From the NCBI GenBank assembly GCA_024679065.1, contig JAGIQG010000017.1, forward strand, positions 30,504,001-30,568,000: 64,000 bases of DNA, written 5' to 3'. Of this stretch, positions 7,306 to 63,080 are shown piece by piece. The translations under genes and the position numbers were made by a program. Positions within the stretch are counted from its first letter, which is position 1; the number at the start of each line of letters is the position of its first letter. The notes beneath the pieces are model-generated. The model searched no databases, had not been told where the DNA came from, and saw only the letters and a program-made list of their open reading frames with translations. The DNA is from Sphyrna mokarran. Its lineage: Eukaryota.

Positions 7306-8568
7306 TTATTTCAGATCTAAATAGTGTCAGCTGTATTGGAGTTGACTGTTTTGATGCTCATTCTCAATTGACAAAATTATTAAAATGGACTGTATCTATA
7401 TATTACATCAGGGAGTCAAATTCTTTCACTTCAGTTAGCTTACCCAGAATCAATTTCCTGTCATATTGCTTATTTAATACTTCAACCTGAAATAGTATAA
7501 ATTTGGTGTCCTGATTAACATCTTTGAAGATGACTTCCAAATAACTGCACACAAAACAGAAATTGATATGCTTACACAGATTACTTGTCTCTATTTGGCA
7601 GTTTTAGCTCACTGGTTAACACTTTGGAGTTCAATTCCTACCTGTGCTATTTTATCACCATTATTATCCCTGGATTAAGACAGACCTGGCAGGAATTTAA
7701 CACAAGTCCATTAACCAATGTATAAAAATAGCTGAGAGAGAGAATTAAATGTATTACTGTTCTGCTAGATGTTCCTATTCATTATTTTTGTTCATACTGC
7801 ACTCAAAATATCTTTTTATTATGCATTTTATTCAAAATTACAATTTGAAACACAACATTCAATCCTTTCCAATTAAGGATTTTTCTAAATGTTGACTTTA
7901 TCACTGATCGTTACATTAATTCCTTCCTGTTATTCTGCAATTCTGATCTATAACTACAACACAGCAATTTCATAGATTACACAATAAGACAATACTAGCA
8001 GTACTATTGGCATTCTACTGCCTGTCTTGTGAAGAATGATAAGTATCAAAAGACAATAGCAGTCTTTAGGTACCAAAGAGTCGTCATATAGAATATAAAT
8101 CTATATTGTACAAAAAAAATCTTTGTAATTAGAATGATCACTAATTCCACCACAGATCTGACTGTACAATACAATAATATTGTGACTAGAATAACGTTCC
8201 TTTCTCATGTCCTGGTTACAAACAAATTAATTAACAGTAAGGCAACCAACTTAATGCTACTATGATCTGCATAATATCTTTGATCAACTAAGCATGTCCA
8301 GGGAAAACATTTCAGATAATCAGGAGTTTAGACATCAGAACGCAAAAAGGTTTTCAATCCATTAATAATTAAAAATGTTGCGTACCAAAAACAGCAAAGC
8401 AAAAATAATACAATACAAGTTTATAAAGTGCAAAGAGTGATTGCAGCCAACCTCTATGGGGCATTTTTAGAGTCTGTTCACAAGGGACAGTTGTAGTTAA
8501 GGCCGTTCAAATAGTACCCTCACACGCACATATTATACACAAGAGTTAAAAGGTAAAAAATGCATTAC

Positions 8569-10366
8569 TTGGTTCAGGTGACGCCATTGTGGAGACAATG
8601 ATTGGTGGTCCTGTACGTCTGGTCACTTTCTGGTTGGCGGTATGTGCCGATCTGTAAGCTGAGCTTGTAGATACCGGTGTAGATTCCATTTGTCCTCCTG
8701 GTTTCCGAAGAATCTGAGGACTACAGTGAGGGCTGTGTAACGGAGAATGAGCTGTGCTGCGTTCCTTTGTCATTAGTTCTATGGGTACAGTATAGGTGGT
8801 ATTGTAGGCAGTTTTGGGGCCTGGATTTGGAGCAGTTGGCATGGCATTCATTGCTATCCCGGACTGAGAAGTATAGCCAGGCCCTGATCGCAGATTCTGA
8901 AGCCCGATGGGATTACTGTAGCCTGTGAAGCTTGGAAAATGAGTCCCCAGTCTCCCAGGCCCAGGAGAACCATAAGTAGCAGTTTCTAGGAGATGTTGGG
9001 AAGGGGCACTAGATGGGCGGCGGTTCAGTTCAGAAAGCCTGGGTGACATTGGTTGCAAAGCCACCGGTAGCTGATGAACAGCAGAACTATCCATTGTGGA
9101 GACCACTCCTGGCTGGACTCCATAGTCATTACGCATTAGTTCACTTCTGTGGCTGAAGCTGTTTGAACGCGTCCTTGTACGAGCACTGGTGTTCTGCAGC
9201 TCCTGTCGTAATTGCAGGTCCGCTTTGCAACTCTGGACAAGCCTCAACAGTAGCCGGGCCTGACTCAGATTCGGAGCCACAGTCTTAATATCGTTTTCTT
9301 CTAACATGGCGAGGAGGTTTGTTGAATCGAAACCTTGTTGCAATAAGGCAGCAATTGTGCTTTCAGATAAACCCTCTGAACGCAACAGTGCCAGAAATTC
9401 AGACTTGCTCTCATGTCCAGGAATCCCTGCAGCGTGGTGGCCACGCGCTACCATCGCGCTGTCATAACCATCATACAGTGGCTTTGAAATCAAACCATCT
9501 CTGTGTGCGCCATAGTCAGACATCATTCTTGTTGCCATTCCTTGTCTCGGAGCATGGCTTAAAGTGCCAGGAGACATCATTCTATCCAAAGTGCTCTCGC
9601 ATCGAGATCCGGTGGCAGGATCCACAACTAAACATGTCGGGGCAACCTGTCGAGCACCTGTGGAATCCAGTGGCCGACCAGTGGCGTCACTGTACATTTG
9701 CTTATTAGTGAGAGACGGTGGCTCTGCTCCGTAACGAGGAAGAGATGTTTCAGCAGCATACCTAGCAGGAGAAGGATCACGACTACGTATTTTCTGTCCA
9801 TCGTGAATCAGCTTACCAGAAGGATCATGGTACATACGGTTTACCTCAGGTCGGGGAGGAGGTCTCCCTTGTGAGTGGTCCCATGAGATCCTTCCTCCTG
9901 ACATCCCATAATTCTGTGGTGATCTGTTAAGCATATGATCCCTATAAAACCGGGCCTCTTCAGAGGGCCTAATACCCATAGCAGGCTCCGGATAGTAATC
10001 CTGAGGAGGCACAGAGCTACGTCCAGACATTGCGGCCTGCTTCTCGTAGGAATGGGAGAATTCCGGCACAGAACTTTTCCTCACAGGTCTGCGATCATAC
10101 CGACGGGAGTAACCTTGGTCAATCCCCGAATCTGGATAAACGTAACATTCATAATTATGTTCATTTGCCTCTGCAAAGTTGTTGCCGTGCCCTCTGACGC
10201 AGTGCGGGTTGTCGCCAACAATTTCTCCACAGTAGTTCAATGAGTTTCTTCTGAGAGGCCTCTGGTACTCGTAAACACTGTCGCTGTCCCAGTTGTCTTC
10301 GTACCATCCACTAGAGTCCCAGCTCTGAGAGCGGCCAACAGTTGTATGCTTGCTAGGGACAGGCAT
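8569..10366 (-). CDS. CTBP2: RIBEYE A-domain exon of CTBP2 (synaptic ribbon scaffold isoform), 599 codons + 1 nt
   Basis: 606-aa ORF begins MPVPSKHTTVGRSQSWD and ends RRTGPPIIVSTMASPEP, matching vertebrate RIBEYE A-domain termini. In-frame TGA lies 18 nt upstream of the ATG. Donor CCA A|GTAATG at 8568 is phase 1, so the last 7 residues of the ORF track (SNAFFTF) are read-through across the donor. Confidence 0.96.
9224..9403 (-). other. CTBP2: SAM-like helical domain within the RIBEYE A domain (aa ~322-381)
   Basis: SEFLALLRSEGLSESTIAALLQQGFDSTNLLAMLEENDIKTVAPNLSQARLLLRLVQSCK has the W/F-L-xx-x-GL ... F/L-xxx-G/E-F/I-D ... L-xx-L-xxx-D-I/L pattern of SAM domains. It is the only clearly globular segment in an otherwise Ser/Pro/Tyr-rich sequence. 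Confidence 0.7.
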
Positions 10367-19019: not shown

Positions 19020-19775
19020 TTTAATTTGATTTATTGTCACATGCATACAGTGAAAAGCATTGTTTCTTGCATGCTGTACAGACAGAGCATACCATTCATA
19101 GAGACAGAAAGGACAGAGTGTAGAATGTAGTATTACAGTCATAGCTAGGATGTAGAGCAAGATCAACTTAATGCAAGTTAAGTGCCATTCAAAAGTCTGA
19201 TGGCTGCAGGGAAGTGTTGGTTGGTACATGTCCTCAGACTTTTGTATCATTTTCCAATGAAAGATGGAACAGAGAATGTCCGGGGCACATGGGGTCCTTA
19301 ATTATGCTGGCTGCTTTGCTGAGGCAGTGGAAAGTGTATACAGACTCTAAGTATGGGGGGCTGGTTTGAATGATGGATTGGGCTACAAACATGACCTTTT
19401 GTAGTTCGTTGTGGTCTTGGACAGAACAGGAGCCATGCTAAGCTGTGATACAATCAGAAAGAATACTTTCTATGGTGCATCTATAAAAGTTAGTGAGAAT
19501 TGTAGCTGACATGCCAAATCTCCTTAGTCTTCTGAGAAAGGTGTTGATGGGTGTCTTAACAATGGGGTCAGTATGGGAGACCTGGATACCTAAAGATATT
19601 AAGCTCTCAACCCTTTTTCTTCATTTCCCTTGATGCAGACGGGGCGTGTTTTCCTTTACACTTCCTGAAGTCGATGACAATCTCCTTCGTTTTGTTGACA
19701 TTGAGGGAAACAAACTGGTGATTGTTGTCGCACCAGTTCACCAAATTCTCTATGGCATGCCTGTACTCTGGTGTC
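19020..19775 (-). mobile_element. Rex1/Babar-type LINE 3' fragment
   Basis: EYRHAIENLVNWCDNN..LNVNKTKEIVIDFRK is the post-YADD RT motif of Rex-Babar/L2-group elements. Ends with a GTGACAATAAATCAAA tail. Confidence 0.8.
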
Positions 19776-20494
19776 CCCTTTGCAATTGGCATTCTGGAGG
19801 GTGGTGGAGGTGAGATTGCCAGGTTCTTGTTTTGATAAAGCTGTTGTAAATTCCGCTGGACTAACGTCTTGCCAGTGCTCAGTGAATATTCGGGGGTGGG
19901 TGTCCCAGCAGGAGGACTTGCTAATAAGATGCTAATGTGTTTAAATTAGGTTCCTGACATTCTGAGGAGGGATTCCAGATCGCACATATTGACACAGACA
20001 TCGAGGGATTCCAAGTCAGTGAGGGCTTTGGAAAGTTCAGAATTGTGATCTCGGCATTAAGAATCATGTTTTCTGATTTTTGCCATTCTTTGCGCCCATG
20101 TTGATGTGTTTGCTGACGGCTAAGGCAGACTGAAAATCACCATCATTAGTTTCCAAACTTTACCTCAGTTATCGTGTTGTCATACTTGAAACCAGTTTGG
20201 TGAATTAGCTTAGGGTATTCTTGCATTTCTCAGCTCCATTCTAAATTACAGCCTGGAAACTTTGAATAACATTGTGCTACACTAATTTCAAAGTGCACTC
20301 ATACACTAATGTTTCCCTTGAGTTAAGTTTTTACGAGTGAATTTTTAGTTTACACTAGTTCTGCTCGTCAGTTATCCCATGTAATAGCTCAAGATGGATT
20401 CAACTCGTTAGGATCCCCAGTTGTAATTTGCTGCAATTTTGTAGAATTAGATACGTAGAGACAGAAATTCATTTCTAGGGTACGCTATCTCGGT

Positions 20495-35085: not shown

Positions 35086-35163
35086 CTCTCCTTGCTGCTG
35101 CTTTGCCTGCCAGACTGCCGCGTTCCTCTGTAGGCCGCTGTTGGTTTCCCCACCAAGCCCCCG
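35086..35163 (-). CDS. CTBP2: Candidate 78-nt in-frame cassette exon of CTBP2 (AGAWWGNQQRPTEERGSLAGKAAARR)
   Basis: Acceptor tttatgttcttgttattttttaaAG|CGG and donor GAG|GTATGT. Length is a multiple of 3 and it is open in phase 1. It is a GC/CpG-rich island in non-repetitive AT-rich intron. No transcript evidence available. Confidence 0.45.
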
Positions 35164-44081: not shown

Positions 44082-44139
44082 CTTCACAAATGCGATCCAA
44101 TCGTTGTCGTTTCACTTTGTGCTTGTCCATCAGAGACAT
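44082..44139 (-). CDS. CTBP2: CtBP2-L first coding segment (MSLMDKHKVKRQRLDRICE+G), containing the NLS-like KVKRQR
   Basis: Reverse complement reads ATG TCT CTG ATG GAC AAG CAC AAA GTG AAA CGA CAA CGA TTG GAT CGC ATT TGT GAA G|GTAAGC. This matches the CtBP2 N-terminus MALVDKHKVKRQRLDRICEG. 58 coding nt, phase-1 donor. Too short for the ORF track. Confidence 0.96.
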
Positions 44140-44250
44140 CAGCAGAGTTAATGAATGAATTCCTTTCAATATAACAAGCAAACAGGGATTGAGGTGTTCA
44201 CAATTCAGGTGAATCCACAGGAGTTGACGTGCATAACTCTAATCCAAATC
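44140..44250 (-). other. CTBP2: 5'UTR portion of the CtBP2-L start exon (whole exon 44082-44250, 169 nt)
   Basis: Strong acceptor cttgtgtcttcatctttctttttAG|GATTTG with the AG at 44252-44251. This implies further non-coding exon(s) upstream. Confidence 0.85.
44205..44234 (-). promoter_or_regulatory. 9-codon upstream ORF (MHVNSCGFT*) in the CtBP2-L leader
   Basis: ATG CAC GTC AAC TCC TGT GGA TTC ACC TGA, ending 65 nt before the main ATG. Confidence 0.75.
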
Positions 44251-45892
44251 CTAAAAAGAAAGATGAAGACACAAGAGTAGTCAGTGAAACTGGAACTACA
44301 CAGGTACTTATCCCCTAGAACTTATATCAACATAGTGGAAAAGGATAATCGTATTTTCGTCAGGAAACCCCAATATCCCATAAAAAAATCACAATTCCAA
44401 CATAAACACAAAGCATAATTTATATCAAAAATCTTTTCACCGTTGTATCCTATCACTGATCATCATCCTGAATGTGAAAGGTTCTTGAGCAGCACAGTGA
44501 TGATTTCTCACTTGCTTATGCAATAAAATACTGATTAGGAAAGCAGCATTTCCAGTCATTTAAAGGTTAACCAACCTATTCAGTGTGCAACAAAGCCTTG
44601 TGTCTCATATACACAAAGCCAAGACAACAATAGTTCTCAGCTAGAACACTGGCCAAATCAAGGTCAGAAGCCCTCCTCGTATCTTGTGACCTTTTCTGCT
44701 ACCATAATAATTACATGTCCATAAGACTCTGTGAGACCTTCATTAATAAGCAGCTCAATGGCTCAAGTAGATGCCCAAGAAACCAGTCTGCCATCTGTAC
44801 TCACAGCCAGTCCACCATCACTGCGATGAGGTCAGGGGTTAGAACCTATATTGATTTTGATGCAAAGCTGGAGGTAAACATGTAACTAAATCCCGTGTGT
44901 GCCTCCCTTGTGATGCATTTATTAACTATTCAAGTGATGCACTGACACATTGCAAGAGTAGAATTCAGCTGCACTACATACCACAACATATCATTGCATT
45001 GTGCTGTCACGACAACAATTGGATGTTGTAAGCTCAGGCCAATCAGTACAGATGGGTCTTCTGCCTGATGGATAGTCAAACAATAACCTCCGTTGCTCAA
45101 GAGAAGGTGGAACTCATATGTTGATTAAATGCACTGTTCAGACCAGAGGCCCACATAGGAGATATTGCCATAACTGTCTTGTGGGACAGAAGTTAAAACA
45201 AGATCGCCGAAATTAGAGCTGGAAGTTGAATGATCAGTCGCAAATATTTACCATTATTCCTCATTTTTCTCTTCCTTTATTCTCAGAAGTATTTATGTCG
45301 ACGTTTATAAAGTAACAACTCAGGATTCATTCAGCCTCTGACGCTATCTGTGACAGGGATCACACACAGGACTGGCACAAATTATCACAAAAAACCTAAC
45401 CAATCTGCAGTATTAATATTCTCAAAGCAGGTTACTGCCATTATTTGAAAAAACTCCAATGATAAAAGAAGTGGACTTCACAGAATTTTTTAAAAGTATG
45501 TCGGTGTATAGCAAACAATGTAATTAACAATAATCAACATACTGGGTCATTGGAGGGGGTCTGAAAAGCAATGCTGAACACAACTGCTGAACATATGGCT
45601 TCAATTTTCCTTGGTTTAAGATAACAGAACAAAAAGAAACCACTTCTGGTAAAAAAAAGTTGTTGCTATCATACTGAATAACATGCTCTCAACCGTGTTA
45701 GGAGCTGGGGAAAATCATGCTGCAGTATGGCAGGTTTTCGAATCTGGTTTTCACACAGTATTTTATTGGACTTCATCTACTTTTTATAAGGACACACAAA
45801 ATAATTATTTTAAATACTTGTGGTGATAATCACATCACCACTGGATCACCAATCCTGGTGATTTCTGCATTCAATTCCTGCATTCAAAGTTT

Positions 45893-62261: not shown

Positions 62262-63080
62262 TGGCACTGTGGTTAGCACTGTTGCCTCACAGTGAAAAGA
62301 ATCCAGGTTCGATTCCAGCCTCAGGTCTCTGCCAGTGGGGAGTTTGCACATTCTCCCAGTGTCTGCATAGGTTTCCTCTGGGGGCTCTGGTTTCCTCCCA
62401 AAGGTGTATGGGTTACGTGGATTAGCCAGGCCAAAAAATTACCCTTAATGTCAGGGAATTTGGAATACTGCGTCCAGTTCTGGTCGCCACACGTGGAAGC
62501 TTTGGAGAGAGTACAGAAAAGGTTTATCAGAATGTTGCCTGGTATGGAGGGTCTTAACTATGACGAGAGATTAGATAAATTGGGGTTATTCTCCCTGTAA
62601 AGACGGAGGATGAGAGGCAACCTAATAGAGGTATATAAAATTGTGAGGGGCACGGATAGGGTGAACAGTGGGAAATCTTTTCCCAGGTCGGAGGTGACGA
62701 ACACAAGAGGTCACAGGTTCAAGATGAGGGGGGCAAGGTTTAACACAGATGTCAGAGGGAAATATTTTACACAAAGGATGGTGCCGGGAATGCACTGTCA
62801 AGCAAGGTGGTAGAGCCGACATGCTGGGATCGTTCAAGACTTATCCGGATAGCCACATGAATAGACTGGGAATGAAGGGATACAAACAAATAGTCTAGGT
62901 GGAAGCATAAGCAGCACAGGCTTGGAGGGCCATAGGGCCTGTTTTTTGTACTGTATTGTTCTTTGTGGGATCAACTGGGCAAATACATGGGGTTATGGGG
63001 ACAGGGCCCTGGGTGGGATTGTTGTCAGTGCAGACTTCATGGATAAATGGCTTCTTTCTGCACTTTAGGGATTCTACGAT
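62262..63080 (+). mobile_element. HE1-type SINE split by a CR1 3' end
   Basis: SINE head and V-domain at 62262-62457. SINE sequence resumes at ~62965 (GGCAAATACATGGGGTTATGGGG...CTGCACTTTAGGGATTCT). Confidence 0.85.
62458..62964 (+). mobile_element. Relatively young 5'-truncated CR1 3' end
   Basis: LEYCVQFWSP..ALERVQKRFIRMLPGMEGLNYDERLDKLGLFSL and RGNLIEVYKIVRG..TRGHRFK..YFTQR, then a tail ending GTACTGTATTGTTCTTT. Confidence 0.92.

Follow-up and report, generated by a model that had tools for sequence, protein, structure and literature searches.

The CTBP2 locus and its transcripts

The window, i.e., the whole 64,000-nucleotide stretch of DNA analysed here, carries a 606-residue frame that matches RIBEYE-type CtBP2 proteins, the best matches being from sharks: 87% with Cetorhinus, 82% with Heptranchias, and 96% over 41% of the query with Mustelus. 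Thus, the locus is shark CTBP2. The exon containing the start of CtBP2-L (Table 1) is bounded by a pyrimidine tract and AG acceptor and by a GT donor. Its main ATG, at 44139, opens MSLMDKHKVKRQRLDRICE; with C at -3 and T at +4, the context of this ATG is weak. The KVKRQR sequence encoded here functions as a nuclear localisation/retention motif (PMC2995425). There is also an in-frame Met4 at 44130, with G at +4; since both Met1 and Met4 precede KVKRQR, either start would yield the nuclear form.

The leader part of this exon comprises 111 nt and includes a single ATG, which opens this study's upstream open reading frame (uORF): ATG CAC GTC AAC TCC TGT GGA TTC ACC TGA. The original prediction had given its peptide, MHVNSCGFT, its length of nine codons, and its end 65 nt before the main ATG in the same exon, all of which are confirmed by translation; the positions given for it are also correct as plus-strand coordinates, and the feature itself is on the minus strand. 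The attribution of the exon to the CtBP2-L leader is likewise borne out by the RIBEYE-type frame, the CtBP2-L start, and the spliced junction. When the leader part was shuffled, some complete uORF occurred in 68% of shuffles, and a uORF of 8-10 codons starting within the first 30 nt in 6%. Considered alone, the shark uORF could be a product of chance; the argument against chance is that it recurs in both vertebrate loci that were found (see below). No stable fold was found (folding z-scores of +1.57, -0.23, and -0.37), and the Rfam comparison returned one chance-level match, with an E value of 0.3 and 19.6 bits where the cut-off is 55. Two further open frames of the window, at 19607-19945 on the minus strand and at 62277-62600 on the plus strand, have translations that resemble pieces of a LINE-type reverse transcriptase.

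Table 1. Positions of the CTBP2 features in the window
Feature	Positions	Strand	Remarks
uORF encoding MHVNSCGFT, with stop	44205..44234	minus	uATG with G at -3 and C at +4
169-nt exon with uORF and CtBP2-L start	44082..44250	minus	covered by contigs of X2, X18, X21
Spacer, 65 nt, no ATG	44140..44204	minus	divergent
CtBP2-L coding start MSLMDKHKVKRQRLDRICE(G)	44082..44139	minus	
KVKRQR, nuclear localisation/retention motif absent from CtBP2-S	44101..44118	minus	
GCACG, variant Rbfox motif, overlapping the uATG	44228..44232	minus	in L002, not in L001
78-nt in-frame cassette exon GAWWGNQQRPTEERGSLAGKAAARR	35086..35163	minus	joined to the L exon in part of the transcripts
RIBEYE A-domain exon, open frame	8549..10366	minus	end is the frame end, unmapped as a splice site

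Four of the 23 listed sequencing runs were examined, their label as RNA being a guess. Contigs from three of them (X2, X18, and X21) span 44082-44252 alone, and both of their ends continue into other sequence; run X22 gave no contigs over the exon. The contigs derive from organism A, which is the window's own species (0 differences), and from organisms I and K. The organism I contig (X18) differs from the window in 4 letters, none of them among the positions listed, and that of organism K (X21) in 11; 6 of these 11 substitutions are listed, along with 2 indels, and every listed difference falls in the spacer. An upstream exon is common to the contigs and is located outside the window; neither this exon nor the canonical downstream exon is present in the 64 kb.

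Two downstream joins were observed. The first, in RNA-type contigs, is the junction customary for CtBP2-L (G-I-R-P-Q-I-M-N-G); it retains Met26, which has A at -3. One shark mRNA thus has two in-frame starts, Met1 and Met26. The second join, in organisms A and K and also within a 3437-nt contig of K, leads to the cassette exon of Table 1; because it bridges 9 kb at AG/GT boundaries, the contigs represent spliced RNA. The cassette adds approximately 26 residues, GAWWGNQQRPTEERGSLAGKAAARR, directly after the KVKRQR exon and would place Met26 further away from Met1. Its WWG motif was found in none of the 137 proteins compared. Some teleost models (P0132, P0156, and P0157) have unrelated inserts at the same junction.

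The proposal that the uORF is restricted to transcripts with the CtBP2-L start exon is supported, and the RIBEYE transcript would bypass it. Three turtle gene predictions and one from a snake (P0009, P0011, P0014, and P0045) have the RIBEYE A-domain connected to the exon of the CtBP2-L start, and consequently the bypass may not hold everywhere.

Orthologous exons

Orthologues were sought with one degenerate scan of metagenome contigs, which yielded two loci, L002 and L001, both of them vertebrate CtBP exons. Viral contigs, scanned for a pattern, contained no match. The same kind of scan over prokaryote genomes gave 1 bacterial match, which was rejected as chance, the remainder of the exon being missing. 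The comparison set consists of three genomic copies and one partial human sequence.

The protein encoded at L002 begins MALVDKH, like the CtBP2 models of turtles and snakes. Its exon is 160 nt long, the uATG is located at exon base 17, as in the window, and the uORF encodes MHADSWEFP (nine codons) and ends 56 nt 5' of a main ATG whose context, with A at -3 and G at +4, is strong. At L001, the protein begins MSLTDKH, and the uORF encodes MPRGIVLTVH: ten codons, with the uATG at exon base 20 and the stop 97 nt 5' of the main start. A further in-frame ATG at base 5 would extend this frame to 15 codons. The possibility that L001 is a CtBP1-like paralogue was considered, since such paralogues share the N-terminal exon (11 KEYL proteins begin MALMDKH). 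It was rejected by the criterion that separates KEFF (CtBP2) from KEYL (CtBP1-like) proteins (PMC9907507): CtBP2-type KEFF is present in all eight MSLTDKH proteins that include the core end, nine more without that end falling outside the count. The L001 leader resembles Channa and Dissostichus models, and from these sequence features L001 is assigned as a teleost CtBP2-family copy, of either duplicate. Predicted proteins that run through teleost leaders (P0138 and P0140-P0143) are compatible with the uATG, although they do not fix its bases. The teleost CtBP1-like (KEYL) proteins P0125-P0137 share the MALMDKHKVKRQRLDRICEG N-terminus of CtBP2, which indicates that the nuclear-signal exon probably predates the split between CtBP1 and CtBP2.

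For the human gene, 54 leader bases, from 81 nt before the coding start, are printed in supplement 4 of Rodriguez 2019 (PMC6528255). Read by eye in the shark frame, they give a partial codon followed by A-D-S-C-K-F-P and a stop, which leaves 55 nt to the coding start. The original prediction had given the human frame as MHADSCKFP; codons 3-9 and the stop agree with the printed bases, while the ATG is not among them. The same row flags an upstream AUG with a value of 6, in-frame according to the methods, which clashes with an ATG four bases upstream. The human uATG accordingly rests on homology and on the original prediction.

The start, stop, and position of the uORF are retained in both vertebrate loci, and in the human sequence codons 3-9 and the stop. 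The predicted conservation of position and length is thus upheld by an ATG/stop pair in two of two orthologous exons, of 9 and 10 codons. Around the uATG, the window, L001, and L002 all have G at -3 and C at +4. From the uORF stop to the main ATG there are 65 (shark), 56 (L002), and 97 nt (L001), with no ATG in any of the spacers. The stop codon itself differs among the three loci, being TGA (as in the window), TAA, or TAG; following one random change, TGA would still be a stop in only 11-22% of cases. Taken as sequence, the uORF is a real and ancient element of shark, amniote-like, and teleost CTBP2 leaders.

Conservation of bases and of peptide

Between the window and L002, 21 of the 30 bases of the uORF are alike in an ungapped alignment (shuffle P 0.0005). 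The spacer is 44% alike, which is not significant (P 0.21), and synonymous sites of the adjoining coding part have almost reached saturation (pS 0.84-0.89; 0.89 for the window and L002). The contrast indicates that the uORF stretch is under constraint. It also makes it very improbable that the uORF is a neutral leftover, with the match being residual homology: short uORFs are common, as the 68% of shuffles attests, and few species were compared, but the ATG, the stop, and the ungapped length have stayed while their surroundings diverged. The view of an otherwise diverged UTR holds for the comparison with the shark; it does not hold between human and L002, for which counts by eye give 22 of the first 28 spacer bases and 19 of 24 interior uORF bases alike, the first of the latter being assumed. 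The motif CTG-TTTGCT is found in the spacer of the window (approximately 44186-44177) and of L002 (approximately 530-542), and also in the human row of Rodriguez 2019.

The claim that the peptide is conserved was not sustained. The shark and L002 peptides share three of eight residues, as would be expected given eight base changes (P 0.69-0.80), and their BLOSUM score is equally unexceptional (P 0.48-0.60 against a position-blind null). In the neighbouring coding part, which served as a positive control, the same test gave P values of 0.015 or less for each of six overlapping stretches of 8 codons. For shark and human, four of eight residues are identical (P 0.33-0.41; counts read by eye). Cys6 of the shark peptide is replaced with Trp in L002, and the teleost L001 peptide has just the Met in common, such that the peptide is not kept over the range of the uORF.

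It is conceivable that a nascent M-H-x-x-S-x-x-F peptide nevertheless stalls ribosomes or acts as a signal, and that the teleost copy lost it secondarily, L001 perhaps being a relaxed duplicate. M, H, S, and F are common to shark and L002, and the human table shows S and F as well. The interior of the uORF, 16 of 24 bases ungapped between the window and L002, exceeds the prediction from the 44% spacer (P 0.021), and its pN/pS is 0.43. In the comparison of human with L002 by eye, four of five changes fall at third positions (P 0.028), and six of eight residues are kept (P 0.10-0.16). Within amniotes there may be a weak constraint on the peptide, judged by several tests on only 8 codons. Against a stalling or signalling peptide, the shark identities to L002 and human match the null, the substitutions include C/W, G/E/K, and T/P, and the pN/pS over these 8 codons compares with 0.04-0.09 in the neighbouring coding sequence. 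The exit tunnel of the ribosome is longer than nine residues, and the whole peptide would remain within it. Moreover, conserved peptides are reported for fewer than 1% of translated human uORFs (PMC7889888). On balance we consider a peptide-dependent uORF improbable.

Equally improbable, or slightly more so, is a splicing element close to the acceptor of a skippable exon, e.g., of the Rbfox type UGCACG, with the ATG and its frame merely riding along. The longest words shared by the window and L002 form TATGCACG, GCACG is located at exon base 19 in both, and GCACG is a variant of the primary Rbfox motif (bioRxiv 10.1101/840272). Some transcripts of human and mouse lack the exon (PMC2995425), and the likeness of human and L002 reaches into the spacer. 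But L001 has no GCACG and yet keeps the ATG, the GGT context, and the short frame, with a second in-frame ATG in addition, and the stop is retained through three different codons. A single 5-mer is also common by chance, and CTBP2 goes unmentioned in the parts of bioRxiv 10.1101/840272 that were available. In toto, the features that persist in the sequences are the ATG, its context, a short length, and a stop, and not the peptide.

Translation records

No paper on this CTBP2 uORF was found in the literature, subscription journals lying largely outside the search. Among the catalogues of translated frames (PMC4739776, PMC10032668, and PMC4568590), Ji 2015 tabulates five human CTBP2 uORFs of 51, 18, 51, 39, and 12 nt, none of them 30 nt. 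In the portion of the Sandmann 2023 supplements that was searched, the sole CTBP2 uORF is a different, 40-codon primate frame, and in the Mackowiak 2015 files searched, the one zebrafish ctbp2a row is a different ORF of 47 codons. The row of Rodriguez 2019 describes a frame that begins with ACG and covers these bases in another reading frame; it passed the periodicity filter and has a score in one of four libraries. This fits the presence of ribosomes on the uORF stretch, without naming the frame they read.

In tables of Denr depletion and of mouse retina (PMC6547434 and PMC8464051), the translation efficiency of Ctbp2 is unchanged upon Denr depletion (log2 -0.02; adjusted P 0.98), a gene-level value in which L and S are pooled, and Ctbp2 is translationally regulated at one stage pair in the retina, where RIBEYE is inseparable from it.

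CtBP2-L, CtBP2-S, and the proposed mechanism

That CtBP2-S can be made from the L mRNA has been known since 2010, although the text of PMC2995425 that we consulted gives no cis-element and no report of a dependence of the short form on a uORF. In that study (Birts 2010), a human cDNA with a 233-nt leader yielded both forms, CtBP2-L starting at codon 1 and CtBP2-S at codon 26, while the exon-skipped S transcript was too rare to account for the S protein (PMC2995425). As the uORF starts 85 nt from the coding start, we infer that the 233-nt leader would include it. The products reported for inclusion and skipping, 571 and 471 bp, differ by 100 nt, as against 160-207 nt for the orthologous exons compared here (PMC2995425). 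CtBP2-L is nuclear, and CtBP2-S reaches synapses (PMC3382178).

The uORF likely exerts a peptide-independent control over how much CtBP2-L is made, to judge from what the sequences retain, and perhaps over the L:S ratio also. The reading that we favour, tentatively and at just short of an even chance, is that a uORF defined by its start, stop, and position dampens CtBP2-L and diverts some reinitiating ribosomes to Met26, resulting in CtBP2-S. The arrangement itself is observed: the uORF is in a spliced exon, its stop is 56-97 nt before the L start, and Met26 is in the next exon, 131-172 nt 3' of the uORF stop. The strength of a start codon follows from its Kozak context, and with G at -3 and C at +4, the middling uATG would capture part of the scanning ribosomes while the rest leak to Met1. 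After nine codons, the 40S subunit would scan on and would have to reload initiator tRNA. Subunits reloaded within approximately 60 nt would start at Met1 and make L; those reloaded later would start at Met26, 75 nt beyond, and make S, which does not have KVKRQR. When ternary complex is low, the ratio is predicted to move in favour of S. Transcripts without the exon, and RIBEYE transcripts with their own promoter, would escape the uORF.

Reinitiation is possible after a short uORF, with an efficiency that falls within approximately 100 nt of the uORF stop, and vertebrate uORF ends are depleted up to approximately 100 nt from coding starts (PMC4890304). Given this depletion, the retention of the CTBP2 uORF stop in that zone is unusual. 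Because the Met1 context of L002 is strong, plain leaky scanning would pass it poorly. The likely target is the balance of long and short CtBP2, beyond the amount of the nuclear form alone.

A close rival, although we regard it as rather unlikely in itself, is a plain repressive or buffering uORF that lowers CtBP2-L for dosage with little effect on L:S, with S arising from exon skipping and leaky scanning. It would leave the same conservation pattern as the isoform-ratio reading, and exon-skipped S transcripts do exist (PMC2995425). In CEBPA reporters, 14-17 nt of spacer were enough to bring back the long form (PMC11109482), and with 56-97 nt reinitiation at CTBP2 may favour Met1. The weak context of the shark Met1 implies that leaky scanning alone could give S, and Denr depletion had no effect on Ctbp2 at gene level; both of these points weigh against delayed reinitiation and suit plain repression. 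Other uORFs upstream in the human leader dilute the nine-codon frame's role. On the other side, there is more S protein than the rare skipped transcript explains, S is made from an L cDNA (PMC2995425), and the Met1 context of L002 is strong.

Extending the favoured reading, we speculate that a uORF as old as the jawed vertebrates sets the ratio of nuclear L to synaptic or cytoplasmic S by delayed reinitiation, and that the shark cassette exon retunes the spacing of the two starts. This fuller version is possible but doubtful. If true, stress and growth signals to initiation factors would shift a metabolic co-repressor between nucleus and synapse. The uORF offers a one-mutation handle on the nuclear versus non-nuclear balance of an essential, cancer-linked co-repressor. 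In addition, nine codons is below the floors of 10 and 16 codons applied by some catalogues, which may thereby overlook an ancient type of element.

Comparison with known systems

The CTBP2 uORF does not represent a novel mode of control, and excitement over a conserved peptide is unsupported. With animal CPuORFs (PMC7530721) it shares a conserved position and length, and some residues are common to shark, amniote-like, and human sequences, but it differs from them in having no significant peptide constraint and in the loss of the peptide in the teleost copy. CTBP2 is not named in the main text of PMC7530721, and in the available part of PMC9396073 it is named just as an interactor. With the conserved uORFs of vertebrates in general (PMC4890304 and PMC7889888), it has in common that the start codon is conserved above the coding part and that modest repression is expected; it stands apart in that its conservation spans shark, amniote, and teleost and in that its stop is located in the zone depleted of uORF ends. 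The human CTBP2 leader ORFs already catalogued (Ji 2015, Sandmann 2023, and Rodriguez 2019) occupy the same leader, and the Rodriguez entry overlaps the same bases; they are 12-54 nt or 40 codons long, or use another frame or start, and none of the entries examined is the nine-codon frame.

A similar arrangement is that of C/EBP-alpha and C/EBP-beta (PMC11109482), in which a short uORF is likewise conserved in length and position while its sequence varies, and two in-frame starts produce a long and a short regulator with distinct functions. The C/EBP-type uORF stop lies within a few bases of the long start, with spacers of 7 nt in CEBPA and 4 nt in CEBPB, whereas those of CTBP2 are 65, 56, and 97 nt. 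Use of the C/EBP uORF and of the long-form start are mutually exclusive, while the effect in CTBP2 would be graded. The C/EBP switch has been demonstrated functionally, a CTBP2 switch is proposed here from sequence, and CTBP2 also makes S by exon skipping (PMC11109482 for the C/EBP features). The CTBP2 uORF thus resembles the CEBPA arrangement but is not a member of it.
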